The notes beneath the pieces are model-generated. The model saw only the letters and a list, made by a program, of their open reading frames with translations, ran no database searches and had not been told where the DNA came from. From the NCBI GenBank assembly GCA_043818055.1, contig JBDRGF010000076.1, positions 1 through 31,416 on the forward strand: DNA of 31,416 nucleotides. Reading direction: 5' to 3'. The number at the start of each line of letters is the position of its first letter. Position 1 is the first letter of the stretch. This document shows positions 2,331 to 31,416 of this stretch, one piece after another. The position numbers were made by a program, and so were the translations under genes. Source of the DNA: Pseudomonadota bacterium (GTDB lineage Bacteria > UBA10199 > 2-02-FULL-44-16 > JBDRGF01).

Positions 2331-3650
2331 TTATGTTAACCGGTAAGAAACAGCAGCACCGCTGCCTTCCCGCAATACCAAGCCGGCTTTTATCAGATTA
2401 TTCAAACGTTTGATAACCGCCTGCCGGGTTAGTTTAACGTAGGCAGCCAGCTCAGAAGTTCTAAAAAAACCTTGTCCAAGCTTTTCCAAAAGCAACACAT
2501 CAACATTGTCCGGCAAATATGTAGATGATTTTTGAAAAATGACGGTTGTAGAAGTCGGATGCAAATCAAATTTTATGGAAACATTTGACTTTTCATTGCA
2601 AATAGAAAGCATCTTTTCTATCCCCCCGCCATATTTCTCAACTAATCCGACATCATAAAAATACTGTGCCAACAAAGGGTTTCTTGGCCTGTGTTCGGGC
2701 GCTTCCGGCGTCACACCCGGAGGAAATGAACCGGGATTTTTGATAAGAATTCTATCTGGCATGATGAATATCTTTATCTCCCCTGCGTCAAAATAGTTGC
2801 GATGTACAATCGCATTTAAAATTGCCTCCCGAAGCGCATCCAAAGGATATTCAAATTTTTCCACCCTCTTAAAACCAACTGTACCTCCTCCCGGCCTCTT
2901 AAGATTATGTCGCAAATACTCTTCAAGCTCTTCAACTATATTCCAAACTGAGCCTTCAAATATGCGCTGATCTGAATATTGTTGCATACCTGAATCCACA
3001 AAACGCACCAGATGAACCCTCGCAACATTTATCCAATCCTGAGGAGACTTTCCAAAAAACAAAAGTCCTCCGTTTGTTACGCCTGTTTTTTTTTCATATT
3101 TCCTTAAAATTCTAAGTTTTATTGATAAGCCTTCGTCGATTTTTTTTGGTTTTTTTACTCCCCTGACAGATTCGCGGCGATCGAGATAAGACTGCACAAG
3201 GCCTTTGTCGATGGAATCTGTTTTAGCATCGGATAGAAGTTCATCAAAAAAGAGGCTCAATCCTTCTCCTGCCTTCTCAATAACTTCATGAATAGAAAGT
3301 GGACGATTGTTTTTTCCCACGCGGATATAGACGATATGTTTATATGAAAAAAGATGATTTCCTTTCTTCACTTCAACAATTGCCAGTAGCTTATTTTCGA
3401 CGCGAAATTTTGACACCTTGACATCAGGCGCAGGCACTACAGCGGAAAAGGCATCTGATATCTCCTGAATTTTCTTTTTCCCGGACAACCCCAAAATTTC
3501 TCCATTGTCGCTGACCCCCACAAGAATCATCCCTCCCTGAGTATTGGCAAACGAAGCAACAACCTTGCCCAAATCAGTAACATCTGCTTTAAATTCAAGC
3601 ACTTCGCTTTCCCCAATTCCAACAAGCTGAATCAATCTCTGAATATCCAT
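2331..3650 (-). CDS. AlbA_2 (Schlafen-like) domain + HATPase_c_4/RecG-C-like domain + C-terminal wHTH protein
   Basis: N-terminal GESEVLEFK...VASFANTQGGMILVGVSDNG; central YPLDALREAILNAIVHRNY...NPG...RNPLLA...VEKYGGGI; C-terminal HTH (TSELAAYVKLTRQAVIKRLNNLIKAGLVLREG). AGGAGG RBS upstream. Confidence 0.85.
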   Translation of the reverse strand: MDIQRLIQLVGIGESEVLEFKADVTDLGKVVASFANTQGGMILVGVSDNGEILGLSGKKKIQEISDAFSAVVPAPDVKVSKFRVENKLLAIVEVKKGNHLFSYKHIVYIRVGKNNRPLSIHEVIEKAGEGLSLFFDELLSDAKTDSIDKGLVQSYLDRRESVRGVKKPKKIDEGLSIKLRILRKYEKKTGVTNGGLLFFGKSPQDWINVARVHLVRFVDSGMQQYSDQRIFEGSVWNIVEELEEYLRHNLKRPGGGTVGFKRVEKFEYPLDALREAILNAIVHRNYFDAGEIKIFIMPDRILIKNPGSFPPGVTPEAPEHRPRNPLLAQYFYDVGLVEKYGGGIEKMLSICNEKSNVSIKFDLHPTSTTVIFQKSSTYLPDNVDVLLLEKLGQGFFRTSELAAYVKLTRQAVIKRLNNLIKAGLVLREGSGAAVSYRLT

Positions 3651-4599: not shown

Positions 4600-4664
4600 C
4601 GTGAAGCGTCCACCCGTGAAACGTAAAAATGCTTTTGTTGCGCTTCACGGGTGGACGCTTCACG
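4600..4664. repeat. GTGAAGC-family palindromic element, copy 1
   Basis: cgtgaagcgtccacccgtgaaacg-taaaaatgcttttgttg-cgcttcacgggtggacgcttcacg; the arms are near-perfect inverted complements. Confidence 0.9.
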
Positions 4665-4680
4665 CAATCGTTGCCCCACA

Positions 4681-5076
4681 CTACTGTGTGTAATCGACCA
4701 TCAGAGTTCCTTCGCAGAGCCCACAATCAGAAATCTGCAATATAAACTGGGATGTCGAGTTGCAGGTCGTATCTCCACCTATCACTGTCACGATGCAGTT
4801 GAAGTTGTTTCCCGACCATGTGCCGTTCGTCGTACCGGGAGGGCCATCTGCAATAGTCCAGGTAGTATCATCGGTGGCATATTCCTGTGGCGTGCACGTA
4901 CCACTTGCATATATCCCATTAGAATCGCTCGGAAGCCCGATGCCGGTACAGACTCCAACTTGTGTAAACATCCATCTTATGGTCGTTGTTCCATCAGCGT
5001 TTTTATCGCTCCCGCAGGAGAGCAGAGCAACAAAAAGAGATGTTAGAAAGATAAAACGAATAATTTTTGAGTTCAT
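4681..5076 (-). CDS. Cys-rich lipoprotein of unknown function
   Basis: Start MNSKIIRF at 5076 with GGAGGGG RBS; hydrophobic stretch and lipobox LLSC; six further Cys in the mature part; 131 aa. Confidence 0.75.
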   Translation of the reverse strand: MNSKIIRFIFLTSLFVALLSCGSDKNADGTTTIRWMFTQVGVCTGIGLPSDSNGIYASGTCTPQEYATDDTTWTIADGPPGTTNGTWSGNNFNCIVTVIGGDTTCNSTSQFILQISDCGLCEGTLMVDYTQ

Positions 5077-5168
5077 ATCCCCCCTCCGATTTAAGTTTCG
5101 GCCCACTTGATACTCAATTTTTATCAAGATATCAAGATTGACCACTCAATGACGATTTGAGCGAGCCA

Positions 5169-5897
5169 TTAAATCCCGCTATCAGTTGCGGAGAGCGTCC
5201 ATGTTATTGTCTCTGACATGTTCGGCTGTATCTGTCCCAGTCCAGTGTTAAGATCTATGGCCACGAAAAAACCACCATTTGCTTCAACGGTATCGAGGCC
5301 ACCAAAAAATATCTCCCCGTTTGCCGTCCCGTCCGCGTCATCCCCATCCAAAAGATTGGCGGCGACGATCTGACCGGTTGCAGGAGCACCATATGCTACA
5401 TCTCCCCATAGCTGCTCTACCTGAGTTGTGTCGATTTGTATGGCAACGCTGTACCCTCCACTTGCAGGGCCATTCTGCGCCATCACCATCATCGTACTAT
5501 CTGAGTTGACGCCGTTGGCGGCAATTGCGCCTGAGTCGTAAGTGGTGCAGAAGAGTCCCTTCAGGGCGATATACTCCATCTTTTTTGAAAAGCGGATAAT
5601 GGGAAGATTTAAAAGACAAACGCGTTGATCGGATCCATAATCAGGAGCTACAGGATTCGAAACCGAAACATTGCTTATCATGCACGTTGATCCTCCCATC
5701 CTTTCAGGTGGACTGATTTCTACTGTGATATCGATGGTGTTAGGGGAATATGCAACCATCGGCGACGGCGTACATTCAGGATCGAGTGGGATATCATCGG
5801 CTAAAGCCTCATTGGCTAATTCGGCCTCATGATGGTTTAAAAAAACCCCTCCCAGGAGGAGGCTGATTGCTATCGTTATGAATATTCCAAATTTCAT
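5169..5897 (-). CDS. Secreted pilin-like protein, paralog A
   Basis: Signal peptide ending ANEALA, 4 Cys, GLFCTTYDS, DGDDADGTANGEIFFGG, C-terminal ETITWTLSA. Clearly alignable to the proteins at 15093-15818 and 17192-17839. Confidence 0.7.
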   Translation of the reverse strand: MKFGIFITIAISLLLGGVFLNHHEAELANEALADDIPLDPECTPSPMVAYSPNTIDITVEISPPERMGGSTCMISNVSVSNPVAPDYGSDQRVCLLNLPIIRFSKKMEYIALKGLFCTTYDSGAIAANGVNSDSTMMVMAQNGPASGGYSVAIQIDTTQVEQLWGDVAYGAPATGQIVAANLLDGDDADGTANGEIFFGGLDTVEANGGFFVAIDLNTGLGQIQPNMSETITWTLSATDSGI

Positions 5898-6026
5898 CTT
5901 GGATATGTTATATCATCATTCTCAATCGCTGTCTATCGCTGTGAATGTCCATTCGAGACAAGTGATCGAAAGACCGTGAACCTGACAGATCCCGATTGTG
6001 GCACAGTGGGAGAGAGACCACACTCT

Positions 6027-8648
6027 TCACTCTGTTGCTCCATTGCCATTGCACTTATCTGTTATCCGGATATCCATTTGCTCAATAAAAGATTTCTCCG
6101 GCACTTTGATATCAAGATTGGTTTTATCACTTATACACATTTTCGGAGGAAGATTTTTGATGATCAGTTTGAATTGACCGGGAATTAGATCTTTGATCCA
6201 GTAATAGCCTTCACTATCAACATTTGATTCATGCTCTCCCAGCATAACAATGAGCGGCTGTAGTTTTACTTTGATATCTCCCTCAATAGATACCTTCCCC
6301 CTCAATGAACGGATAGGCTTAAACAAGAAGTTCACCACATATTCCTGATAATCTGAAATTTCGATCCTCTTCTGAATATCACTCACTGGCTCTATGTCAT
6401 CGGGAATGTCTGCAGAATCCAGCCAAAGCGAGGCCTCCCCCTTCTCAACCCCCTCGAATATCGCTCCATCCCTGACATTATGGAAAGTTCTTATACTGCC
6501 GCTTGAGTCTTTAAGATTGAGTTTCGGAAGCGAAATGGAATAATCCCCCTCATCAGATATGCCGTTATCATTCACATCCATGATGAGTTGAACTCTCAAA
6601 GTCGCCCTGGGTAATATAAATGGGAAAAAAAGATTCTCGGCATTATCACCCGTTATTGTCAGACTCTGATCCGGCACCCCACTCAACAGCTTGAGCGCGT
6701 CAGAGCTGACTGTCACATCATGATCGCCAACGCTTACTCTCGAAAATATAAACCTCCCATGGGCATCCGTAACCTCCCGGTTCTTTCCATCGATCCTGAC
6801 GTTGACACCGGTAAGGGGCACATCGCCTTCATCAAATCTTCCATTGTAATTATTATCTATAAAAACCATCCCCTCGACCTTTTGATTTTTGCTCCCTGTA
6901 AACAATCCTTTAATAAGAGAATCGCTTTCGATTCCGGGGCCAAAGTACTGCCGATAAGAGATTCTCAAACTGCCGATGAATCTGCTCACCCCTGTATATG
7001 AATATGAATTGGAAGCTGAGAGTGCGAGGCGATGCAGTGAGGTGACTTGGAAATCCAGGGAGGGCGAAAAGGACAATTGATGATTATTGCCTCTAAATCC
7101 CTGCTTTGTGTAAGTCAGGTTAAAACGCAAACTCATCCTTCGAAAATAAAAATCGGTCGATGCGTTTAACCTCGCGCCATCTGAATTATTGCTTCCTCTG
7201 CTATACCAGGCGTTTGCTCCGATATCCAGATATCTTCCTCCAGTTTCAATCCTGAGATCACTGGTCCAATCAACCCTGTTTAAGGAACCCTTAAGATCCT
7301 CTCGATTATATGTGACGTTATTCATAAGGTATGAATTCATGCCAATAGGTTGATTAAAAAAAAGTGTAGTATAGTTTGCAAGGAGAGTGCCATCGGCCGT
7401 CCTTTTTGATACCGATTGTCTTAAGCCGTAGCTGTTTTTAAATGCGGGTCTGCGCTGATATCCCAAACTAAAAGTCAGGTTGTCGGTGCTTCCGAACGCG
7501 GCGACATCGAGATTAATATCATGTAACAATGACGCAGATAAAAAACTAATCTGATCCTTCAGTTCCTGTTGAGTAGAAAACTCGTAGTGATGACGGTCGC
7601 TGGTCGTCCGCGTCCCTGAAAAATCCATCAACCCCTTCTTTACAAAATAATATTTGGCCGAAGTATAACCCTTCTCATTTTGAAAAAAAGGCAGCACCTG
7701 TGCCGCAAAACCCCCTTTGGAAACGTACCCCCCTGCGCCCAATGAGAAAAAGTCCTCGTAGAGATAATTCCCCTCGAGAGAACCTGCAAAATTGTAATCC
7801 TTACGATCTGTCGGTTGAAATGTGACAAAACCCACATTTATCAAATTGGGATAGCGCACATCAGCTCTAGGCCCCTGCACAAAATAGTTAAATCCCGCCA
7901 CCCTTCCCTCATCCTTTATCTTTGAGAGATCCGGGGGCTGATCCACACCTCCAAAAATTTCGAAGGTCGCTTTATAATCATCATCGAAAGGATGATAAAA
8001 ATCCTTAAAATAGAAATTCGTACCCAGAAACGAAACACCGGAAAGGACCACAGACTGAAACCGGTTCATAGAAAAAGATGAGTTTCCAAATGTAAATCTC
8101 ACCTTGTCATTGATATATGTTGATCTGACCGATGTCACCTTTCCATCATGCAAACCGCTATGTGTAAAGACAGTATTCCCCGTAAAGCTGGCCTTTCCAG
8201 AACTCCACTGCATTCCCATGTTATGTGTATATTGGGGATTTAAAAAAAAATAATCGTTTGAATAATTTGAAGTATTTGAAAAATCGTAGATAAAATATGG
8301 CTTTCCAAGTTTAAACCTTGGGCTATCCATCCTGAACCCTAATGTCTGGGGGGGTAACACAGCAATTTCGACGGCATCCAAAAGGCCATCTTTCCAATAG
8401 AGGAGCTGTGTTCTTCCGATCTGCAGGGCCAAAATCGTTACAGATGACGATTTTTCACTTAAAATCTTAATCACTGTATCGTCAGCAGCAAAAAAACCCG
8501 ACCCTACAACAGATATCTTTTTCTTCTGGCCGAGACCAAGCTGAACCTCATTCATCTCATCTTCTATCTTATCTTCAGCTGAATAGAGAGTGCTCGAAAT
8601 TCCGAGAAGAAATGAAAAAAAAACAATCAGGACAACAACACGGATCAC
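6027..8648 (-). CDS. Usher-like outer membrane protein: N-terminal pilus-formation (T2SS/T3SS pil_N-like) domain, beta-barrel region, C-terminal SdrD-B/carboxypeptidase-regulatory-like domains
   Basis: Signal peptide; VQLGLGQ...ADDTVIKI...VTILALQIGRTQLLYW; long aromatic amphipathic beta-strand region; VEGMVFIDNNYNGRFDEGDVPLTGVNV...TDAHGRFIF; MDVNDNGISDEGD; DSEGYYWIKDLIPGQF. Start overlaps the stop of the chaperone-like gene. Confidence 0.6.
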   Translation of the reverse strand: MIRVVVLIVFFSFLLGISSTLYSAEDKIEDEMNEVQLGLGQKKKISVVGSGFFAADDTVIKILSEKSSSVTILALQIGRTQLLYWKDGLLDAVEIAVLPPQTLGFRMDSPRFKLGKPYFIYDFSNTSNYSNDYFFLNPQYTHNMGMQWSSGKASFTGNTVFTHSGLHDGKVTSVRSTYINDKVRFTFGNSSFSMNRFQSVVLSGVSFLGTNFYFKDFYHPFDDDYKATFEIFGGVDQPPDLSKIKDEGRVAGFNYFVQGPRADVRYPNLINVGFVTFQPTDRKDYNFAGSLEGNYLYEDFFSLGAGGYVSKGGFAAQVLPFFQNEKGYTSAKYYFVKKGLMDFSGTRTTSDRHHYEFSTQQELKDQISFLSASLLHDINLDVAAFGSTDNLTFSLGYQRRPAFKNSYGLRQSVSKRTADGTLLANYTTLFFNQPIGMNSYLMNNVTYNREDLKGSLNRVDWTSDLRIETGGRYLDIGANAWYSRGSNNSDGARLNASTDFYFRRMSLRFNLTYTKQGFRGNNHQLSFSPSLDFQVTSLHRLALSASNSYSYTGVSRFIGSLRISYRQYFGPGIESDSLIKGLFTGSKNQKVEGMVFIDNNYNGRFDEGDVPLTGVNVRIDGKNREVTDAHGRFIFSRVSVGDHDVTVSSDALKLLSGVPDQSLTITGDNAENLFFPFILPRATLRVQLIMDVNDNGISDEGDYSISLPKLNLKDSSGSIRTFHNVRDGAIFEGVEKGEASLWLDSADIPDDIEPVSDIQKRIEISDYQEYVVNFLFKPIRSLRGKVSIEGDIKVKLQPLIVMLGEHESNVDSEGYYWIKDLIPGQFKLIIKNLPPKMCISDKTNLDIKVPEKSFIEQMDIRITDKCNGNGATE

Positions 8649-9604
8649 TTTAATACCACTGTCCTCTCGATTGGCGGTAGTTTGATTTTAGTGCTGACTA
8701 CGGTTAGAATTGCCTTATAACTTCCTGCCGGGATATCTTTCACGACCGGTTGAAAATTCACATCGTTGATGCCACCGGGAATAACAGTTACATTCCCTTC
8801 CGTCTTCATCCTTGCCACCACATTACCATCCTTCATCAGTATCAAAAGTGGAGAAAACTTAAGTTCCGCGTTTCCTGTATTCTGAAATACAGCCCGAGCG
8901 CTCACAGGGAGATTCCCTTTCTTGGAAAGAAGCTTCAGATCTTTCAAAGCCAAGGCATAATTCAATGTTCCCTCCACATTGAGCAGTACCCTCACGTCAA
9001 TAGCTGCCTGCATACCCACGCCGACGCTCTTAACATATTCTGTGGATTTCAGCGCTTCACCGCTTGGAGCCTCTCCACCCGCACTAAAACGCAGCCTCAT
9101 ATACTGGCTTCCTTTTAACGATGAAGGAACAACAAAGCTGATTGTCATATTCTTATGACTTCCAGCAGGAATTATGAGAGTTTTCGCTTCCAAAGTGATA
9201 TTTCTGGCGATATTATCAGGTGGCAACGAGGGAATCGGTTTTATCTGTAATTTTCCATCGCTTCCGAGCACAACGCCGACGGGCGTGATGAAGGCCTGAA
9301 GAGGATATTTTCTGCTAGGGTTGTCAACCTTGACCGTAGTCGAAACCTGAGTGCCCGCTTTTCCCGAAATCTCTATTGAAGGAGGAGAGACCCCGATCGC
9401 AGCCATACCGAACTGCGCTGCTTCGGGTGTAGCTCCTTTCGACGCTTCCTTGGGAGCTTCGGCTTCACCCTTAACAGAACTATCAGCCGGCGTTCTTCCT
9501 TTTCTCTTCGGACTCTTCGCGAAGGCATCCATGCAGCCAAATACAAGAAGTAGCGTCAATACCAACGACAAAGACAAAGACAAAGACAAACATCTGTTTT
9601 TCAT
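8645..9604 (-). CDS. Periplasmic two-Ig-domain pilus chaperone-like protein (PapD-like or DUF916/DUF3324-like)
   Basis: Signal peptide; IGVSPPSIEI...VKVDN; IIPAGSHKNMTISF; second domain FQNTGNAEL...TVIPGG...IPAGSYKAILTV. Lies between the pilin-like and usher-like genes. Confidence 0.6.
   Translation of the reverse strand: MKNRCLSLSLSLSLVLTLLLVFGCMDAFAKSPKRKGRTPADSSVKGEAEAPKEASKGATPEAAQFGMAAIGVSPPSIEISGKAGTQVSTTVKVDNPSRKYPLQAFITPVGVVLGSDGKLQIKPIPSLPPDNIARNITLEAKTLIIPAGSHKNMTISFVVPSSLKGSQYMRLRFSAGGEAPSGEALKSTEYVKSVGVGMQAAIDVRVLLNVEGTLNYALALKDLKLLSKKGNLPVSARAVFQNTGNAELKFSPLLILMKDGNVVARMKTEGNVTVIPGGINDVNFQPVVKDIPAGSYKAILTVVSTKIKLPPIERTVVLK
9567..9590. repeat. In-frame hexamer repeat (GACAAA)x4 encoding Leu-Ser repeats in the signal peptide
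   Basis: gacaaa x4 seen directly. Confidence 0.9.
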
Positions 9605-9613
9605 GTCATCTCC

Positions 9614-10216
9614 TTAAATTGCGCTTGTGGTTAAACGAAACCTGTCTGTTATCTTTCCGCTCTGCTGCGGCGAAATCTCAAGCAACATCCTCAGGGTTAT
9701 AGTATTGGCACCGGAAAGCACATCTACTCTGTTAAACTGAGGATATGTATATATCACATCTCCGATGTCAGATCTGTTTGTGGAAAGGGAGTAATAGCTG
9801 TTGCTGAACGAGCTGGGAGAGGCATAGAGTCTGGTAAGCTCAACCCCCACGGAATCGATACCGCTGAAGATGATCGCCACGTTCAAAACAGCCTCCAGAA
9901 CAAGATTCCCTTTGTCATTTAAAAAAGCGTCTCCATTTGAAACTAATTCAGGATGTGTGAATGCTACATTTCCAAAATCTACCGCGTCGCCCGTTAAAAT
10001 CGTCGACTTTCCAAACTGGTTTGATCCTCCGGAAAGAGTTATCTGTATTGTCGGGTTGACCGTAGCACCCATTTCAACTTGTGAGTCATTTGCCGTCTGC
10101 CCGAATAAAACGATAACAGATTTCGGAAACAAAAACGAAATAGCGATAAACAATATCAAACCCGAAACTCTTTTTAAATTTTTTATTGAAAAAGAAAATT
10201 TATGTAGACAATTCAT
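9614..10216 (-). CDS. Secreted pilin-like subunit (Csu/spore-coat-U-like pattern)
   Basis: Hydrophobic leader; SQVEMGATVNPTIQITL (donor-strand-like alternation), AVDFGNV, C-terminal SGKITDRFRLTT. First gene of a tightly packed three-gene operon. Confidence 0.55.
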   Translation of the reverse strand: MNCLHKFSFSIKNLKRVSGLILFIAISFLFPKSVIVLFGQTANDSQVEMGATVNPTIQITLSGGSNQFGKSTILTGDAVDFGNVAFTHPELVSNGDAFLNDKGNLVLEAVLNVAIIFSGIDSVGVELTRLYASPSSFSNSYYSLSTNRSDIGDVIYTYPQFNRVDVLSGANTITLRMLLEISPQQSGKITDRFRLTTSAI

Positions 10217-10251
10217 AGTTGATATATATAAATGTATATTAGATTTTATTC

Positions 10252-10334
10252 AAGTTTTAAATTGGGGGCTTCGAAAAATAGGGAGATGTTACAGCTCTTT
10301 TGTTAAAAATTTTTCAGAAGTTTTAAATTGGGGG
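10252..10334. promoter_or_regulatory. Two 17-bp direct repeats (AAGTTTTAAATTGGGGG) in the divergent promoter region
   Basis: Identical copies at 10252-10268 and 10318-10334, 66 bp apart; the second overlaps the likely RBS of the ABC ATPase. Confidence 0.6.
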
Positions 10335-10339
10335 ATACC

Positions 10340-11245
10340 TTGATAGAAGTCAGTGCGCTTGATCATTACTTCGGCAACTTCCACGCACTTAAGAATATAA
10401 GTTTTTCTGTTCCATCCGGTCAAATCACAGGTTTCATCGGACCGAACGGAGCAGGAAAATCCACCACTCTTAGAGTCTTGTCCGGTTTTTTAGTACCGAT
10501 GAATGGTGAAGTTATTATAGATGATATTCCATTATTTAAAAACCCGATGGAGGCGAGAGAACGAATTGGCTATGTGCCAGAAGTTCCGCAACTTCACAGG
10601 GAGATGCAAGTCGATGAATATTTAAACTTTGTGGCGAATCTAAAAGGCATCTCCAAAAAAGTTTTTAATATACAACTAGATGAAATCACAACGAAATGTG
10701 GGCTCTCTAAACTCAAAAAACAGCTTATCGGCAACCTTTCCAAAGGAAACAGGCAGAGGGTAGCGCTTGCTCAGGCTTTTATAGGAAAACCAACAGTTTT
10801 ATTGCTCGATGAACCGATGTCCGCAATGGATCCCGTTCAGACTATGAGCTCAAGGGAGCTGTTAAAAAATCTCTCTAAAAACACAACGATACTGATATCT
10901 TCCCACATCCTCTCCGAGATATCGCAATTGTGTGACCACCTGATTTTAATCTCCGATGGTGAGATTAAATATCAGGGCCCTGTAAGTGAGATCTATGCAA
11001 CTTCAAAAAATGGCAAAATTGTGGAATTAAACTTCTTTTCAATGAACGACGATTGGGCAGATAAGGTCAAAAAACTGCCCGAGTGCACACTTATAAGCAG
11101 AGAGGGCTCAACACTTCAGGTTGAGATTTTCGATGAAGCGGTATTTCTACAGAATCTTTTTGAATTAACAGCGAAACACCATATACCGCTTAGAGAGGTT
11201 GCATCCAAGATGCACAAACTGGAATCGTTTTTTAGGGGGAATTAG
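10340..11245 (+). CDS. ABC transporter ATP-binding protein (GldA-like)
   Basis: Walker A GPNGAGKST, signature LSKGNRQRV, Walker B LLLDEP, SSHIL. Start probably TTG at 10340 after GGGGGA; the ORF track starts at 10328. Confidence 0.93.
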   Translation: MIEVSALDHYFGNFHALKNISFSVPSGQITGFIGPNGAGKSTTLRVLSGFLVPMNGEVIIDDIPLFKNPMEARERIGYVPEVPQLHREMQVDEYLNFVANLKGISKKVFNIQLDEITTKCGLSKLKKQLIGNLSKGNRQRVALAQAFIGKPTVLLLDEPMSAMDPVQTMSSRELLKNLSKNTTILISSHILSEISQLCDHLILISDGEIKYQGPVSEIYATSKNGKIVELNFFSMNDDWADKVKKLPECTLISREGSTLQVEIFDEAVFLQNLFELTAKHHIPLREVASKMHKLESFFRGN

Positions 11246-11248
11246 CCG

Positions 11249-12016
11249 GTGAAGAGCAAGACATTTACAATCGCATGGAATGAATGGAAGATATTCTTTC
11301 ACACACCTTTTGCCATGCTTATCATCCCGCTCTTTATAGCCCTTTGCAGTATTTATTTCTACGCAAAGCTCGACAGTTTCCTCTCCCTTTTAAACCCAAG
11401 CGACGCTGCGACCACTGTAAAAGGGCTCAATATCAACTCCTTTCTTCTGCTTCCATTCTTCAAGGATATGTTAAATGTCTTCATCTTCATCATACCATTG
11501 ATAACGATGAGAACTTTTGCTGAAGAGAAGAAGATGGGGAATTTTGAACTTCTTATCAGCTATCCTGTCAGACCTGAAAAAATACTTTTCGGAAAGTACC
11601 TCGGCGTTTTAACGATCATCCTTCTACTTTTATTATTGAGTTTTATCTATCCCCTCATCACGATAATCTTTGGCGATCCTTATCTTCCTCTGATACTTTC
11701 CACATATTTAGGTTTTTTTCTCTTCATACTGATGTACTCTGCTCTCGGGGTTTACGCATCCCTTCTAACTGAGAACCAGATCATCGCGGCCATCATCACT
11801 TATGGAGCATTTTTCGGCACATTTCTCCTGCGTTGGCTTGCTTATGTATCATTTTCACCGCTGGATAAATTTTTTCAAAATTATCTATTTGTGGTGCATA
11901 TCAACAATCTGATGAACGGCTTCATGTTCACCGGCGATATCGCCATGTATCTCTGTACTACAGGAATTATCTTAACATTGGCTTATTGGAGAATAAGGAG
12001 GCATTACGTAAGATGA
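11249..12016 (+). CDS. ABC-2 type permease (GldF-like)
   Basis: About 6 TM segments; IPLITMRTFAEEKKMGNFELLISYPV...GKYLG; SLLTENQIIAA. Confidence 0.9.
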   Translation: MKSKTFTIAWNEWKIFFHTPFAMLIIPLFIALCSIYFYAKLDSFLSLLNPSDAATTVKGLNINSFLLLPFFKDMLNVFIFIIPLITMRTFAEEKKMGNFELLISYPVRPEKILFGKYLGVLTIILLLLLLSFIYPLITIIFGDPYLPLILSTYLGFFLFILMYSALGVYASLLTENQIIAAIITYGAFFGTFLLRWLAYVSFSPLDKFFQNYLFVVHINNLMNGFMFTGDIAMYLCTTGIILTLAYWRIRRHYVR

Positions 12017-13464
12017 TTTGGTTAGGATCCATAGGAATTTTGGCATGTCTTGCGGTCATTCTGTTGAGAATTGAGCCTCAGTGGGTTCAATATCTCGCCT
12101 TTGCTGTGAGCATCTCCCTCTTCTCCCTCATTTTAATAAAGGAGATCAAATTGCCGGGGAACTTTAAAAACTGGATAAAAACAAAAACGCTATTGTTAAC
12201 TCTCATTCCTTTTTTCCTCATCACCAATCTGATCATCAGAAAATATGAGCCTGTATGGGATGTTTCCGAATACAAGAACTACTCATTCCGACAGGAATCA
12301 ATCGATTGGATTTCAAAAGTGAATGAACCTGTTGAAATAATGATCTTCTTAAAAACCGACGACAAGACATCTACCTATGCCTTGTGGCTACAGGACCAGC
12401 TGGATAAACACACAAGCTTTGTTAATGTCAAAACTTTGAACATCAACAGGGATGTATCACTTGCAAATCGCTATGGAATAACAAGCCCTAACCAGGCGGT
12501 ACTGATTTCCGGAATAAACTGGGTCAAAGTCGATAGTTTTAAAGAGGATGCTATCATCTCAGGCATGATCAAGCTCTTATCAAAACAGGATGTGACGATA
12601 TGTTTTTTGAGCGGAGATGGAGAACCCGATGTAGATGATGATTCACCTTCAGGGTTATCGGTGGTTAAATCAACCTTAACCGATATGGGTTACAAAACAA
12701 GCATCGTAGCCTTAAAAGATAAAACCAACATAATGAGCAGCTGTTCTTTGCTGATAATTATAAATCCAAAAACCTCTCTTCTCCCCTCCGAAGCAAAAAA
12801 CTTTAATGAGCTTTTGAACTCTGAGACACCCATCCTCTTCGCAGCTGGCCAGCTGGTTTCACCAGAGATGAAAACGTTGCTAAAATCTGCAGGAATCACC
12901 CTTTCTGAAGAAATCGTCATTGAGCCAAACAATGTGGAGGATAAAACTTCAGTCACAGATATCGTCCTCGAGAGATTTGAAAACCATCCAGTCAACGACA
13001 ATCTCAGTGGACGCCTGTACATGCCGGATGTTCAGCAGATACTGACAGGTACCAGCAACAAATTTCAACTCTCTAAATTGCTCACCACCCCCTTTTCGAA
13101 AGAGTATGCCCTGCTCGATGAACAAAACAGATCGAAAGAAGATACAAGCCAATCCTTCATATTAGCTGTAACGACTCAAACTGCTGAAAAAGAACCAGCG
13201 ATGGTGATATTCGGCAGCGCTGGAGCATTTCTTAACAAAAATTTGAATTTTGGAGTCAACAAGGGTATCTTTATCAATGCCATTCGCTGGTTGATAAAGG
13301 AAAATCAGGTTTCGTTGATCGCGCCAAGGGAATATTCCGAGAGGCTGATTCGCCTCGATGAGTCAGAGTCAGAATGGATTAAACGCTTATTGGTGTACGC
13401 CCTGCCCGGCTTCTTGCTCATCGTGTGCGGCTTGATCTTCATTGGCCACAGGAAAACAAGATGA
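12013..13464 (+). CDS. ABC transporter auxiliary component (GldG-like)
   Basis: N-terminal TM segments, WDVSEYKNYSF, A-x-x-YGI, FLSGDGE, IINPKTSL, NKGIFINAIRWL, C-terminal TM. ATGA overlap with the permease stop puts the start at 12013. Confidence 0.85.
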   Translation: MIWLGSIGILACLAVILLRIEPQWVQYLAFAVSISLFSLILIKEIKLPGNFKNWIKTKTLLLTLIPFFLITNLIIRKYEPVWDVSEYKNYSFRQESIDWISKVNEPVEIMIFLKTDDKTSTYALWLQDQLDKHTSFVNVKTLNINRDVSLANRYGITSPNQAVLISGINWVKVDSFKEDAIISGMIKLLSKQDVTICFLSGDGEPDVDDDSPSGLSVVKSTLTDMGYKTSIVALKDKTNIMSSCSLLIIINPKTSLLPSEAKNFNELLNSETPILFAAGQLVSPEMKTLLKSAGITLSEEIVIEPNNVEDKTSVTDIVLERFENHPVNDNLSGRLYMPDVQQILTGTSNKFQLSKLLTTPFSKEYALLDEQNRSKEDTSQSFILAVTTQTAEKEPAMVIFGSAGAFLNKNLNFGVNKGIFINAIRWLIKENQVSLIAPREYSERLIRLDESESEWIKRLLVYALPGFLLIVCGLIFIGHRKTR

Positions 13465-14336
13465 AAAAAAATCTTTTTTACATGATTTTCTTTTTTACTG
13501 TGCTCGGCATCTCCACTCTGATTTTGAACATCAGTTTTAAGAAGAAGTTGCCGAGAGTGGTGACCTGCAATCCTTTCAAAGTAATTTCCATAACGGTTGA
13601 AAATGAACAAACTCTGCCAATAGTTATCAATAAGGATTTAAATGACGGGAGATGGATAGTCTCTCAGGGTGATTTTTCTAATCTCGCAGACCAAAAGACC
13701 ATGGATATTTTTCAGAATGTGATTTGCTATATCCCATATATTGAAAAATTCGAACCCTCTGACCCCTCTCAGAATGTCAGCAAAGAATTTGGTTTTGAAA
13801 AGCTACGAAAACTCACAGCCCGGTTTGCGGATAAAAAGGACCCTGTCACGCTATCTTTCGGATCCGCAACCCCCACAGGGACTGAAATTTATACCGCTTC
13901 TTCAGTTACTCCAAAATACATCTACACGATACCCAATACCCTCGAAAACCAGATAATACCAAGCTTTATGGACATACAGTCACGCCATCCATTTGACATT
14001 GCAGAAGGGGATACAGTTACATTCGAATTTCAGGGAAGGAGATTTTTATCTGATGATATCATCCCTGTTTTAAAGGCTTTTACATGGGTCAATTATCATG
14101 GCCCGATGAAGGAGGAGGATCTCTCTGAGTACGGTTTTTTTCTCCCGGATCTTCGAATTAAAATTGAAAAAAAGAACAATTCTCAACAGGAATTTCTTCT
14201 CACAAGGCAGAATAAGAGATATTACCTAACGCTCAGAATGAATGACTATTATTACGTCCTCATCCTGTCGCCACAAGCGCCAAAACTTTTACTCGACACA
14301 CTAGAAAAAGGTATAACGCACCAGACTGCTTCCTAG
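13461..14336 (+). CDS. DUF4340-like periplasmic protein of the Gld-type ABC operon
   Basis: N-terminal TM anchor, W...ADQ, EFGF and EYGF repeats, LSFGSATPTGTEIY. ATGA overlap with the previous stop; usual fourth gene of such operons. Confidence 0.7.
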   Translation: MKKNLFYMIFFFTVLGISTLILNISFKKKLPRVVTCNPFKVISITVENEQTLPIVINKDLNDGRWIVSQGDFSNLADQKTMDIFQNVICYIPYIEKFEPSDPSQNVSKEFGFEKLRKLTARFADKKDPVTLSFGSATPTGTEIYTASSVTPKYIYTIPNTLENQIIPSFMDIQSRHPFDIAEGDTVTFEFQGRRFLSDDIIPVLKAFTWVNYHGPMKEEDLSEYGFFLPDLRIKIEKKNNSQQEFLLTRQNKRYYLTLRMNDYYYVLILSPQAPKLLLDTLEKGITHQTAS

Positions 14337-14915
14337 CATTGCTGCTTTGACCGGAATAGACATCTGTAGCCAATAGTGATCTAATACCCCTTTCCCTGCT
14401 GGATAAATATTCAGAAATTCGCCTGTCGGCAGCACATCTACATAATTTGAAGGTAATACATCAGCAAATGAATTGAGCTCATCCTTTGTAAAATCGCCAT
14501 CGCGACTCAGATAAATTTTAAATTTGCCGTAATGCTCGTACGCCAGATTCAGACGCTTTGCTCTGCCGCTCTCCTGACAGAAAAATTCCCCGGTAATCGG
14601 AGGGCCATCAAATATACTTGAAATATATCCCTCTATCGGAAAGGATATCTGATTTTTGATGGCCGTATATTGCTCTGTATAATCACCTTCGACAATCATC
14701 GTAGCGCTGTAAAGTGGCTCACTCCCCCTCTGGGGCGTGTAAAAAAAATGTACCCTTAACGCCCTCGGACCGGTAATCCTGGAATGGGGCTGGCATTGGG
14801 CGGAGATATTCCACTCTATGGATTCTGAAAGGGCTGATTTGGATTCGGATGGAAGAATAAAGAGAGAGAGTAAAATAAAAAACATCGATACAAAAATAAA
14901 AAAGTTCCTCTTCAT
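14301..14915 (-). CDS. Secreted hypothetical protein
   Basis: 204 aa with a clear signal peptide (MKRNFFIF...SKS-A) and two Cys; 36-bp convergent overlap with the DUF4340-like gene. Confidence 0.65.
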   Translation of the reverse strand: MKRNFFIFVSMFFILLSLFILPSESKSALSESIEWNISAQCQPHSRITGPRALRVHFFYTPQRGSEPLYSATMIVEGDYTEQYTAIKNQISFPIEGYISSIFDGPPITGEFFCQESGRAKRLNLAYEHYGKFKIYLSRDGDFTKDELNSFADVLPSNYVDVLPTGEFLNIYPAGKGVLDHYWLQMSIPVKAAMLGSSLVRYTFF

Positions 14916-14967
14916 CCTTCCATTATTAGAACAGCATCAATCTTGTTGCAAGATAAGAATGTGAAAT

Positions 14968-15005
14968 AAAAAACAACCCCCTCCTCATAACTCAGGAAGG
15001 GGTTG
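14968..15005 (-). terminator. Rho-independent terminator downstream of paralog B
   Basis: Minus strand reads CAACCCCTTCCT-gagttatg-AGGAGGGGGTTG followed by TTTTTT. Confidence 0.75.
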
Positions 15006-15092
15006 AATTCTGAACTTCTGAATCTGTCACTCCCTCTCTCCCCCCCAAGCTGGCCCTCATGAAATCATGCCAGCTTGTTGAGAACCTTCATC

Positions 15093-15818
15093 CTACGGAA
15101 TTGCATCAATCGCAGTAAACGTCCAGGTAATCGCCTCAGTCAGGCCATCAACGACCAGGTTGTACGCATTAAGCTCTAACCCCAGGTAAAATCCTCCATT
15201 GTCTCCATTTTCAGCATAACCGCCGAAGAAAATCTCACCATTAAAAAGACTATCACCGTCACTACCATCAGCCAGATTGAAAGCTCTAATGAGTCCATCT
15301 GCTGGAGCTCCAACTGCTAGCTCACCAAAGAGCTGCGATCCAGCCACGCTGTCTATCTGGGCAAAAACTGTTGCATCACTGCTTATGTTATCCTGGGCAT
15401 TAACTACCAAGTCTGTTGCATTCGCCCCGCTACCCTTCAAAGCAGCAGAATCATATGTTGTGCATAGCAACCCAGCCAGCTTCAGATATGGCATTTCGGA
15501 CGAGGCTTTGATCATGTCCACACCATCAAAGTAGCACTCCGTTGAATCAACTCCACCTTCACTTTCAACAGGCGTGCCAACTACTACAGGGCCAGTCACA
15601 CTACATAAGGGAATTTGCAGAATGGCCGGAGGACTTATTGTCAACGCATACGTGACACTTACAGGGGCAAAAGCCACTGGTATTGCTCCTTCGCAGCCGA
15701 CGATGATATTGGTATCAGCTGTCTCTGCAATCGCATTGTTTGCCACATCGATGTTAAGAAAATACCCTCCTACACCAAGGCAAATCGCCATCAATGTCAA
15801 TAACCATAATTTCTTCAT
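15093..15818 (-). CDS. Secreted pilin-like protein, paralog B (candidate major subunit)
   Basis: Start MKKLW at 15818 with AAGGAGGT RBS; GLLCTTYDS, DGSDGDSLFNGEIFFGG, EAITWTFTAIDAIP; has its own promoter and terminator. Confidence 0.72.
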   Translation of the reverse strand: MKKLWLLTLMAICLGVGGYFLNIDVANNAIAETADTNIIVGCEGAIPVAFAPVSVTYALTISPPAILQIPLCSVTGPVVVGTPVESEGGVDSTECYFDGVDMIKASSEMPYLKLAGLLCTTYDSAALKGSGANATDLVVNAQDNISSDATVFAQIDSVAGSQLFGELAVGAPADGLIRAFNLADGSDGDSLFNGEIFFGGYAENGDNGGFYLGLELNAYNLVVDGLTEAITWTFTAIDAIP

Positions 15819-15925
15819 AAAAACCTCCTTCTTTCTCCTACTCGTTAAAATCTGTTGGATTGGTTCCCTTCCACCTCCTTTCATCCAACCCATACTTCCT
15901 TCCAAAATCACCACTGCTCTTTAGG

Positions 15926-15942
15926 TGCATATCGCGTACCAA
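15926..15942 (-). promoter_or_regulatory. Sigma-54 (-24/-12) type promoter for paralog B
   Basis: Minus strand TTGGTACGCGATATGCA gives GG-N10-GC; IHF-like site TTTCAAGTGGTTA at 15985-15997. Confidence 0.65.
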
Positions 15943-16262
15943 AGATAAGGTGTGTGTTTTTTGATAACGGGTTTTATTGAGATATTTCAAGTGGTTATAG
16001 ATTTTTTCCAGATTTTGAATTTTTGATCTCTGCCGAAAATCTAACAGGTGGGTGAAAATGATATTTTCCACATCTTGCAACTAATTAAAATTAAGAAACA
16101 ATTTTGAGAGGTAAGTTTGGCGAAAAATTTCTACTGCCGGATCCATAGCAATTTTTTTCGAGTGTATGTATGATATTGCGACAGAGGAGTCAAAAGAGTG
16201 ACAGGAAATGAAAAACAAAAATCGGATGTAGCATGTGAGCCTGTTTCCGAACTCAGTTTACT

Positions 16263-16354
16263 CTCATCGCGGGGAGCTTTGCTACGAAGCAATCTGGCAG
16301 AAATAATTGAACTTTCTTGATCGCCACACTCGCCTTCGACTCGCTCGCGATGAC
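16263..16354. repeat. REP-like palindromic element of the GTCAT(C/T)GCGAG...GAAGCAATC type
   Basis: ctcatcgcgggg...cgaagcaatct ... gatcgccacactcg...ctcgcgatgac; imperfect inverted arms just upstream of the MNT gene. Confidence 0.7.
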
Positions 16355-16436
16355 AAATCCACTTCAACTGTTTTAAAAAAAAGATCAGAAATAGTATTTG
16401 CGCCTTAATGCAAATACATGTTACTGTAGCAGAACT

Positions 16437-16790
16437 ATGAACAAATCAAATAGAATTAAAAACCTCCTTACCGGTCAGGAACTGCGGGCAGTTTCTTTGT
16501 TTTGCGACAGATTAAAGAAAGAAACCGGGAAGCAGACACACACAATCGTGTTGTTTGGTTCCAGATCACGCGGCGAAGGCCATGAGGATTCAGATGTCGA
16601 TATATTGATCATCCTGAAGAAAGAAGATCACATAATGAAGGTCAAAATATGGGACCATGCATACAAAATCTTCGATGAAACAGATATCATGATCTCCCCT
16701 TTAGTGTTGAGCGTTGAACAATTCGAAAAACTTTTAAAACATGAAAGGCTGATTGCTTTGACTATCCGGAAAGAAGGGATCAAATTATGA
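16437..16790 (+). CDS. Minimal nucleotidyltransferase (MNT), antitoxin-like
   Basis: VLFGSRSRGEGHEDSDVDILI (GS-X10-DXD). ATG at 16437 preferred; ATGA overlap with the HEPN gene. Confidence 0.9.
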   Translation: MNKSNRIKNLLTGQELRAVSLFCDRLKKETGKQTHTIVLFGSRSRGEGHEDSDVDILIILKKEDHIMKVKIWDHAYKIFDETDIMISPLVLSVEQFEKLLKHERLIALTIRKEGIKL

Positions 16791-17179
16791 ACAATGAAAA
16801 CAAGCTTGGGAATTCAGGATTGGAAATGGAAAAAGGAAGCTCAGCGCTTGAAGAAGCTCAGATATTATTTGATAACGCAAAATACGATGGTGCGGTTTCA
16901 AGGGCTTATTACGCGGCTTTTCATTATGCCTGCGCAGCTCTGTTGAGCAAGGGACTTGAGGCGAAATCTCACCAGGGAATGCAGCGTCTTTTTCATCTAC
17001 ATTTTATCCGCACAAAGATTTTTAATAATAAGGCGGGAGTCATATTGAGTCATGCCCAAAAGGCGAGAGAAGAGGCTGACTATTATCCTGAGATCTCTTT
17101 TACTAAAGAGATAGCTGAAGAACGGTTGAATGAGGTCAAAACATTCGTAAAGCAATTACATGCCTACCTTGAATCATAA
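16787..17179 (+). CDS. HEPN domain protein (UPF0332/COG1895-like)
   Basis: SRAYYAAFH, KSHQG, FHLHFI, REEADY motifs; coupled to MNT. Confidence 0.88.
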   Translation: MNNENKLGNSGLEMEKGSSALEEAQILFDNAKYDGAVSRAYYAAFHYACAALLSKGLEAKSHQGMQRLFHLHFIRTKIFNNKAGVILSHAQKAREEADYYPEISFTKEIAEERLNEVKTFVKQLHAYLES

Positions 17180-17191
17180 AAATGTCGAAGC

Positions 17192-17839
17192 TCAATTTAT
17201 CGACACTGTCCATGTCAGGTTTTCGGTGAGACTTGCGGTGGGGGCATTGAGATTTGCCTTGATAAGACTTAATCCTCTGCTTGGAAACTCGACCGATCCG
17301 TTCTTCATGCCGTCTCCGTCCACATCATCGCCATCGCTGATCGATTTTCCAAGAAATCCATCTCTATTGCTGAATTCGGAAACACCTTCTAAAGAATCGG
17401 CAAGACGTGTTGCGTCAAACCTCTTCGAATTTGATTTTCCAACTGATATATCCAAAACTTCGTCCGGCAATTCGTCGTCACCGGATATCTTTGAATCAAA
17501 TGCCATCGGCCCTCTGCACAAAAGCCCAGTGATGCGCTTTGTAACATCCTTCACTGCTACAATTATACGATCATCATTGCGACTCAATATTTTGCATCCC
17601 AGATTTGACTCACATTCGCCTAGCTCAGCCCCTATATCGTGTTGTGTTGACAAGATAGAAATTTGCATGTCTTCGATATTATGAACAGAGATTGGTGCGG
17701 GTAAACAGCTGACAGATATTGATGTTGTCGCAGTCGCTGCATAGGCCTCTTCACCTATTTCCAAATTCCTCGATTCATACATATAATAGAATGAGAAGAT
17801 CAAAAGCATCATCGTTATCATTATATATATCTTTTTCAT
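17192..17839 (-). CDS. Secreted pilin-like protein, paralog C (more divergent)
   Basis: Leader ending IGEEAYA, TTSISVSC, GLLC, DGDDVDGDGMKNG, TENLTWTVSIN; GGGGGG RBS-like stretch. Confidence 0.65.
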   Translation of the reverse strand: MKKIYIMITMMLLIFSFYYMYESRNLEIGEEAYAATATTSISVSCLPAPISVHNIEDMQISILSTQHDIGAELGECESNLGCKILSRNDDRIIVAVKDVTKRITGLLCRGPMAFDSKISGDDELPDEVLDISVGKSNSKRFDATRLADSLEGVSEFSNRDGFLGKSISDGDDVDGDGMKNGSVEFPSRGLSLIKANLNAPTASLTENLTWTVSIN

Positions 17840-17887
17840 CTTAACCCCCCTGACAACTTTTTAACATTTTCTCATACATTTAGGATA

Positions 17888-17904
17888 TGCATATATCATT
17901 CCAG
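17888..17904 (-). promoter_or_regulatory. Sigma-54 (-24/-12) type promoter for paralog C
   Basis: Minus strand CTGGAATGATATATGCA gives GG-N10-GC; IHF-like TTTCATTAGGTTA at 17941-17953. Confidence 0.55.
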
Positions 17905-18141
17905 CAAAAATCAGGAAAAGTTAACTAAATTAACATTGTATTTCATTAGGTTAGCCGGATAAATCAGAGACGGTTTTTGGGCACGCTAAAAGTAAGGGTA
18001 AATTGCGTATTTGCAATCCGTTGATATGCCCCATCTTTTTCGTGTGAGCTTTTAGTTGATATTTTAAAACTGCCAGGTTTTGGGCGATATTTTCCAGATT
18101 ACACCCGTTTGAGTAAATAAACACCCACAGCATAAAAAACC

Positions 18142-18219
18142 CGTGAAGCGTCCACCCGTGAAACGTGAAACGTAAAAATGCTTTTTTGGCGCTTCACGCT
18201 TCACGAACAACGCTTCACG
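18142..18219. repeat. GTGAAGC-family palindromic element, copy 2
   Basis: cgtgaagcgtccacccgtgaaacgtgaaacg-taaaaatgcttttttgg-cgcttcacgcttcacgaacaacgcttcacg. Confidence 0.9.
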
Positions 18220-18223
18220 TCTT

Positions 18224-20749: not shown

Positions 20750-20790
20750 CTTATTAATTTTTGTTGGGAATACCACCCCAAGTCTCCCCC

Positions 20791-20817
20791 GGGCAGCCAC
20801 GAGGGGCTACCCCTACA
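20791..20817. repeat. GTAG-family REP, single unit
   Basis: Minus strand TGTAGGGGTAGCCCCTCGTGGCTGCCC, a variant of the arm at 22010-22036. Confidence 0.75.
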
Positions 20818-31045: not shown

Positions 31046-31057
31046 ATCCCCCCCTAT

Positions 31058-31237
31058 TACGTGAAGCGTCCACCCGTGAAGCGTGAAGCGTGGGTGGATA
31101 AATTATTCTACGTGAAGCGTCCACCCGTGAAACGTGAAGCGTGGGTGGATAAATTATTCTACGTGAAGCGTCCACCCGTGAAGCGTGAAGCGTGGGTGGA
31201 TAAATTATTCTACGTGAAGCGTCCACCCGTGAAGCGT
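31058..31237. repeat. Tandem array of 3.5 x 51-bp units built on the GTGAAGC element
   Basis: Unit tacgtgaagcgtccacccgtgaagcgtgaagcgtgggtggataaattattc starts at 31058, 31109, 31160, with a partial copy at 31211; one substitution in unit 2. Confidence 0.95.
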
Positions 31238-31416
31238 TTATAGCTTTTTTATCAAATTTCGTAGCATTCTGGTTTCATGATTTAAAATTTCAAGTAATTC
31301 ATATTTATTTCTTTCTTCTATAAATTTCAGATTACTTGAAATCTCTACCTGCGTCTCCAATTCTGCACATGATCCCAGCGCTACATATAAAAATTGTTTA
31401 TATTCTTTGTTATGAA
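31238..31416 (-). CDS. Four-helix-bundle protein (23S rRNA intervening-sequence protein / bAvd-like family), C-terminal part; 5' end outside window
   Basis: Manual translation of the minus strand gives HNKEYKQFLYVALGSCAELETQVEISSNLKFIEERNKYELLEILNHETRMLRNLIKKL*, matching the family pattern F-L-x-x-A-x-G-S-x-x-E-x-x-T-Q. Not in the ORF track. Confidence 0.85.
   Translation of the reverse strand, partial: HNKEYKQFLYVALGSCAELETQVEISSNLKFIEERNKYELLEILNHETRMLRNLIKKL

Follow-up and report, generated by a model that had tools for sequence, protein, structure and literature searches.

A probable donor-strand pilus locus with a predicted plug-less, usher-like pore and an adjoining GldAFG-like ABC module

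The usher PapC of the chaperone-usher pathway is described, in the available parts of PMC4356140, as a 24-stranded barrel with a plug inserted between strands 6 and 7, and the same parts give ushers two C-terminal domains. According to these and to the available parts of PMC3960871, the plug of the ushers studied closes the pore and aids the recruitment of subunits. The non-classical chaperones are defined by a carboxylate anchor formed by Arg89 and Tyr169 in EcpB numbering (PMC4654587, in the text available). Outside these families, WxLIP proteins have recently been shown to be pilus chaperones (bioRxiv 10.64898/2026.10.17.759780), and PamC/D of Candidate Phyla Radiation (CPR) bacteria have been proposed to be such (PMC13278184), both as stated in the accessible sections of these reports. 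Here, we describe a locus in a stretch of 31,416 nucleotides from a Pseudomonadota bacterium (contig JBDRGF010000076.1; hereafter the window), in which an operon encodes a 200-residue secreted protein, a 319-residue predicted chaperone and an 873-residue outer-membrane protein, the pore. Judged from the genes and the predicted folds, this locus probably builds a donor-strand-exchange pilus by means of a non-canonical usher with 26 strands and no plug.

The three genes had been singled out in a first-pass annotation as a compact operon, and this description stands: all three open reading frames (ORFs) lie on the minus strand, with 9 bp between the first and the second and a 4-bp overlap between the second and the third, and they form a conserved unit. 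Hydrophobic, signal-like N-terminal segments can be read in each product from its sequence alone. The Pfam scan returned only SdrD_B and CarboxypepD_reg for the pore, a weak fn3_5 match for the chaperone and no match for the 200-residue protein, and NCBIfam gave none for any of the three. Each gene is single-copy in the genome that bears the operon (G000, 93.6% complete), in which a scan with PF00577 found no match.

We have searched 93 genomes of the lineage, a set that is the same for class and phylum searches. Word-index searches with the pore found only the pore itself, and a full HMMER scan was needed for the homologs. Of 19 genomes matched in the lineage, nine with short SdrD-B-domain matches only were dropped, six of which (G009, G031, G038, G066, G091 and G092) were inspected and hold unrelated proteins, while G002, G023 and G052 were not inspected. 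Pore and chaperone occur together in 10 of the 93 genomes, namely G000, four with close pore relatives (G025, G063, G064 and G090) and five with distant ones (G001, G047, G049, G050 and G078); the chaperone profile, itself built from these loci, has no match in the other 83. No relatives were found in viral contigs or plasmids. The neighbourhood survey that the first-pass annotation had proposed found the order pilin-chaperone-pore kept in eight related genomes (G025, G063, G064, G090, G001, G047, G049 and G078). The pore genes of G090 and G050 are split over contigs, and that of G063 (L013, G063:C1:2115000-2134999) is broken by frameshifts into three pieces; frameshifts also affect several unrelated neighbours, and this looks like an assembly error rather than decay. 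A second type of locus, in G047, G049 and G078, consists of three small pilin-like genes, the chaperone, the pore and a convergent gene facing the pore gene, whose product is secreted and pilin-like; no ABC (ATP-binding cassette) module is present in the 20 kb read at each. In all three, a gene labelled SurA/PPIase-like (peptidyl-prolyl isomerase) from sequence reading lies divergently upstream (L044 5564-6604, L045 5636-6520, L046 4226-5227). A separate lipoprotein-like family of about 430-490 residues with an N-terminal SdrD-B-like domain (L027, L029-L033) occurs in at least six pore-less genomes of the class.

The AlphaFold2 model of the pore has a mean predicted local distance difference test score (pLDDT) of 89.1 (87.6-89.1 over all five models), and runs from an RcpA-type N-domain through 26 consecutive barrel strands to three carboxypeptidase/SdrD-B-like beta-sandwich domains, which carry the SdrD_B and CarboxypepD_reg matches. 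The long barrel-like region noted earlier is predicted at residues 118-569; the count of 26 was read from the secondary-structure string of the model, and hydrophobic alternation is weak in strands 5, 17 and 19 (0.32, 0.45 and 0.03). The barrels of the second locus type (L044, L045 and L046) are 25-30 residues longer (478-482 versus about 452), the added length lying near strands 9-11, and may have two more strands. A resemblance of the N-terminus to the immunoglobulin-like (Ig) domain of Tad/CpaC-type secretins had also been proposed; the N-domain of the window protein itself has no Pfam match, and the proposal is borne out by the family, in which PF13629 (T2SS-T3SS_pil_N) is found in 27 of 40 aligned members and whose profile matches the N-terminal parts of the solved secretins 8jvb (E 0.0017) and, weakly, RcpA 8odn (E 0.21). 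As for the roughly three C-terminal domains with DxNxNG calcium loops that had been reported, the three domains are there, and the loop is confined to the first two (residues 598 and 691), a loop-like motif being present in 22 of 38, 27 of 37 and 4 of 37 alignment rows for domains 1, 2 and 3, respectively; the third domain has a conserved Cys pair.

A barrel of about 24 strands with a plug had been expected; the predicted barrel is usher-like, has 26 strands and lacks the plug. The connector between strands 6 and 7 comprises 10 residues in the window protein and at most 15 in the 37 rows aligned, compared with 88 in FimD, and the longest connector anywhere in any of these rows has 32, so that no aligned homolog holds a plug-sized insertion. 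In EcpC the TcfC domain (PF16967) occupies residues 283-350, the same strand 6-7 position; no TcfC match was found in the window pore or among the domains listed for its family. On the model, the 26 strands and the missing plug are the more important departure from expectation, and such a pore would need gating of a kind not yet described. Candidates for closing the resting pore are the conserved 200-residue subunit, the N-domain and the longer loops 5-6, 7-8 and 13-14 (10, 14 and 13 residues). In a 2026 survey of predicted barrels, the only strand numbers given for Fim/usher types are 16 and 24, in the part of the text available (bioRxiv 10.64898/2026.03.07.710327), and our literature search, with most subscription papers outside its reach, turned up no account of an usher that has 26 strands or lacks a plug.

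The link of the pore to ushers comes from structure, motif position and context. In a Foldseek search with the whole model, FimD/PapC chains take ranks 1-9 and 11-13 (E 4e-16 to 4e-11) at a TM score of about 0.3; the comparison suggested earlier against these ushers came out as expected, the structures compared including none of CsuD or EcpC type. Immediately ahead of its plug, FimD carries a GD-x-RG motif at strands 5-6 (it reads LGD-x-FRG), and the pattern G[DN]-x(7-16)-[LFVI]RG is present at the same strands in 11 of 11 distant pore members examined, a pattern that was defined post hoc on members partly picked for the motif, three of them cluster-mates, and that shuffled sequences match at 4-24% per protein. 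In the window pore it is degenerate, with only two glycines, nearly invariant in 40 aligned sequences, and it was not found in EcpC. Because the motif falls at the same strand pair as in FimD, it supports the strand 6-7 register. Usher, PapC_N and PapC_C have no match in the window pore at E 0.1, nor among 25 of 26 families listed for the 40 members, two of which weakly match CooC_C (PF15976, E 0.016). The pieces retrieved by sequence searches of the PDB with the pore were of SdrD, NOMO and secretin-N type, and none was an usher. In the Atlas, unnamed clusters with the pore's domain set occur in Omnitrophota (0.98; PF13629 in 51% of members), Acidobacteriota, Gemmatimonadota and other phyla. 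Taken on structure, motif position and context, without a significant alignment, the pore likely descends from ushers.

Compared with classical FimD/PapC (PF00577, PapC_N PF13954, PapC_C PF13953), the pore shares the order of N-domain, large barrel and beta-sandwich C-domains, a length of about 870 residues and an operon with a chaperone and subunits; it differs in having no HMM (hidden Markov model) match, 26 predicted strands instead of 24, no strand 6-7 plug, an RcpA-type N-domain and three C-domains, two with calcium loops. The earlier statement that classical ushers have other N- and C-terminal domains holds for the N-domain and only in part for the C-terminal ones, as the EcpC C-terminus also matches CarboxypepD_reg (E 1.2e-4). 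This match, the chaperone that aligns with EcpB and a 200-residue protein near SCPU/Csu-type clusters recall the alternative (ECP, CFA/I) and archaic (Csu) systems, which differ in that EcpC has a TcfC plug, while the present locus has no carboxylate anchor and no SCPU HMM match and has an ABC module attached. The non-canonical usher class put forward by the first-pass annotation is supported as the best reading of the pore: no HMM places the three genes in a described fimbrial clade, the predicted barrel is usher-like and FimD/PapC head the structural matches. The system is best read as one that works like a chaperone-usher system, yet lies outside the Pfam usher families, from which it departs in HMM, strand number and plug alike.

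The profile of the 319-residue family aligns with EcpB over 162 columns (probability 83%, E 9e-6), covering both domains and the donor-strand region, which falls at about residues 190-210, and has no match to FimC. A proline invariant in nine of nine members aligns with an EcpB proline and is presumably the invariant proline of the superfamily, judging from the alignment. The carboxylate anchor is missing, Arg89 and Tyr169 of EcpB being replaced by Met and Thr, and Arg148 by Lys. WxLIP_PGBD is found below cut-off in three of nine members (best 22.9 bits versus 27.3), the match of the profile to a solved WxLIP in the PDB search is weak (E 0.03), and proteins that carry PapD_N (one at E 7.7e-7) or PF06030 turn up among its homologs at E about 1e-6. 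The sequences stop at the second Ig domain without a C-terminal membrane anchor, and PF06030 and PF11797 above cut-off together with such an anchor, the marks of WxLIP proteins (DUF916/DUF3324), were not found in the chaperone. The WxL/WxLIP (Elr) pili of Bacilli and the Pam pili of CPR bacteria are therefore similar in chaperone-guided donor-strand assembly outside the Pfam chaperone-usher families, as well as in the weak WxLIP/DUF916 matches, and differ in having membrane-anchored chaperones and no usher, as opposed to a soluble chaperone and an outer-membrane pore. A second chaperone copy is present in G050 (L084, G050:C16:5244-6017).

Each locus of the close subfamily has a single copy of the 200-residue protein, which is the best conserved of the three, with 41-52% identity among four genomes compared with 34-40% for the chaperone and 27-31% for the pore. 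Its nearest named Atlas clusters are SCPU (0.90) and WxL (0.89), its TM score by target to a Csu-type pilin is 0.61, under the bar of the tool, and a PDB sequence search with its family gave one weak match only; these weakly suggest that it is pilin-like. It is a candidate for an initiator or for a separately encoded plug subunit. The three paralogs mentioned in the first-pass annotation (A, B and C) were all recovered, along with a fourth, more divergent one. A and B share 38% identity, the folds of the paralogs are weakly pilin-like, and the subunit candidates bear amphipathic N-terminal extensions; no pilin-family HMM, SCPU included, matches the 200-residue protein, the paralogs or nine homologs. 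Four loci carry 3-4 larger paralogs, and the paralog profile matches four of the 93 genomes, always at this pilus locus, only the G063 matches and a fourth G025 gene being independent of the profile. Other genes lie next to the paralogs in the window: a 154-residue Cys-rich predicted lipoprotein gene downstream of paralog A (4681-5145, minus), with no family match, three paralogs elsewhere in the genome (two on C79, one on C159) and no counterpart seen at related loci, and a toxin-antitoxin-like nucleotidyltransferase and HEPN pair inserted between paralogs B and C (16398-17179, plus), absent at the matching position in G025, G063 and G064.

Head-to-head with the operon lie genes for an ABC ATPase, a permease and a GldG-like protein in G000, G025, G063, G064 and G090, followed by a DUF4340-like gene in G000, G063 and G064, the loci read that far. 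The GldG-like protein matches 18 of the 93 genomes, at 283-345 bits in the four locus-bearing relatives and at most 72 bits in the other 13; G063 and G064 have a second, generic GldG-like copy elsewhere, and in G001 a distantly similar GldG/DUF4340-like pair lies upstream, about 6 kb away. The order of ATPase, ABC-2 permease, ABC_transp_aux and DUF4340 is that of known GldA/GldF/GldG-like modules with DUF4340, from which the present module differs as a separate clade that, in the 93 genomes, occurs nowhere but head-to-head with this pilus locus. The module is co-inherited with the pilus operon and probably serves the fibre.

We suggest the following mode of assembly. Sec would export the subunits, that is, the 200-residue protein and the 3-4 larger paralogs, and the chaperone would, like EcpB, complete their Ig folds with a G1-like strand (about residues 190-210). 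The complexes would dock on the RcpA-type N-domain and then pass to the C-terminal domains, stiffened by calcium, and the fibre would leave through the barrel. The variable paralogs may form shaft or tip, while the highly conserved 200-residue subunit would face the machine as initiator, terminator or a free plug filling the resting pore, with the ABC module serving the fibre. Possible, though doubtful, is the further step that such pilus machines make up a branch of their own, the plug-less usher being gated in trans, with the 200-residue protein in the resting pore and the ABC module coupling ATP to opening, delivery or remodelling.

Profile comparisons of the pore family with FimD and EcpC were negative, and the kin genomes are not independent; had the genes been transferred as a block, the ABC linkage would need no functional tie. 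An unlikely alternative is that the barrel exports or anchors single Ig-like proteins such as adhesins or a surface layer, instead of assembling a pilus, with the ABC module in periplasmic handling and no long fibre. The known usher gating cycle cannot apply to a pore without a plug, a dedicated ABC clade accompanies the locus (chaperone-usher pathways are not known to need an ATPase) and the paralogs are only weakly pilin-like, all of which would suit a translocon; however, the EcpB-like chaperone with its donor-strand segment always adjoins the pore, the 20 kb read at the second locus type contain three small pilin-like genes, chaperone and pore but no ABC module, and the amphipathic extensions of the subunit candidates speak for a fibre. 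Still less likely is a very divergent ordinary usher, a new archaic- or alternative-class member with miscounted strands, two of the 26 forming an inward hairpin or mini-plug. The Foldseek ranking, the weak alternation of strands 5, 17 and 19 and a strand count read from the secondary-structure string favour it, but a wall of 24 strands would still leave no room for an Ig-sized plug, the longest connector of 32 residues falling short of plugs of about 70-90; moreover, the N-domain comes from another family, and the best match of the barrel among the top 1000 Foldseek chains is MtrB, a 26-stranded protein.

That match raises the question of an MtrB- or LptD-like barrel sheathing a partner for electron or lipid transfer, unrelated to pili, which we regard as improbable: Z scores follow barrel size, at 8-11% identity, and such barrels differ from the pore in showing no sequence similarity and in having other periplasmic domains and another gene context. 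A porin-cytochrome conduit was rejected, since no CxxCH haem motif could be read in the secreted proteins of the cluster, and the periplasmic domains and neighbouring genes indicate pilus assembly. Least probable of all is that the locus belongs to a Tad or type IV pilus system, the RcpA/CpaC-type N-domain marking a secretin substitute; apart from that domain, the 873-residue protein matches no secretin domain, the locus genes scanned with Pfam and NCBIfam include no pilus ATPase, peptidase or class III pilin, and the barrel is predicted to be monomeric, so that membership of this group was rejected as well.

The coordinates of these features are given in Table 1. Elsewhere in the window, an 858-residue ORF (18224-20800, minus) combines a region resembling a beta-propeller, a segment like MXAN_2561 (E 1.6e-6) and, at its C-terminus, an outer-membrane barrel like MXAN_2562 (E 1.2e-10), all below cut-off; these are two protein families in NCBIfam, here in one frame, and the ORF was not seen in the related loci read. 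A 644-residue protein (270-2204, plus) matches the RTX calcium-binding repeats (PF00353) as its sole family above cut-off, an AlbA_2/RecG-C/helix-turn-helix protein is encoded at 2331-3650 (minus), and a 51-bp unit repeated in tandem about four times (about 31050-31243), upstream of pyrH, shows as a 17-residue repeat in a plus-strand ORF. Rfam found no family at gathering score in the whole window, and at 4600-18400 only two chance-level matches, with no sign of a cyclic di-GMP riboswitch.

Table 1. Positions of the pilus locus genes, pore domains and ABC module in the window
Feature	Position	Strand	Basis or remark
Paralog A, 242-residue secreted subunit candidate	5169..5897	minus	directly downstream of pore gene
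873-residue usher-like outer-membrane protein gene	6027..8648	minus	GTG start
Three C-terminal SdrD-B/CarboxypepD-like domains, residues about 588-866	6051..6887	minus	Pfam, model
Predicted 26-strand barrel, residues 118-569	6942..8297	minus	AlphaFold2 model
10-residue strand 6-7 connector, site of plug domain in ushers	7974..8003	minus	model and alignment
N-terminal RcpA/CpaC-N-like Ig domain, residues about 35-98	8355..8546	minus	takes place of PapC_N; PF13629, model
319-residue predicted periplasmic two-Ig chaperone gene	8645..9604	minus	soluble, without C-terminal membrane anchor
200-residue secreted pilin-like gene	9614..10216	minus	first gene of operon
ABC ATPase (GldA-like)	10328..11245	plus	PF00005; divergent from pilin gene, 111 bp between starts
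ABC-2 permease (GldF-like)	11249..12016	plus	PF12698/PF12679; 49-54% identity across four loci
GldG-like periplasmic ABC auxiliary protein	11986..13464	plus	PF09822, TIGR03521 below cut-off; locus-specific clade
DUF4340 protein, last gene of ABC module	13425..14336	plus	PF14238; synteny
Divergent fourth paralog, candidate minor subunit	14301..14915	minus	counterparts in G025, G063, G064, probably G001
Paralog B, 273-residue ORF (about 241 residues from likely start), candidate major subunit	15093..15914	minus	amphipathic N-terminal extension before conserved Cys
Paralog C, 215-residue subunit candidate	17192..17839	minus	paralog comparison

A plug-less family with its own chaperone and subunits offers a test of whether pilus assembly needs a plug, and of how so large a pore stays shut. 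Chaperone-usher-like pili are probably under-counted in uncultured phyla, because the genes of this operon escape the standard usher, chaperone and pilin HMMs. In addition, the fixed association of this subfamily with an ABC module gives a concrete starting point for finding out what GldAFG/DUF4340 modules do in bacteria other than Bacteroidota. If gating in trans were true, the locus would make a chaperone-usher-type pilus that has an inner-membrane ATPase, and it would represent a large overlooked class of ushers, with look-alikes in Omnitrophota, Acidobacteriota and other phyla.

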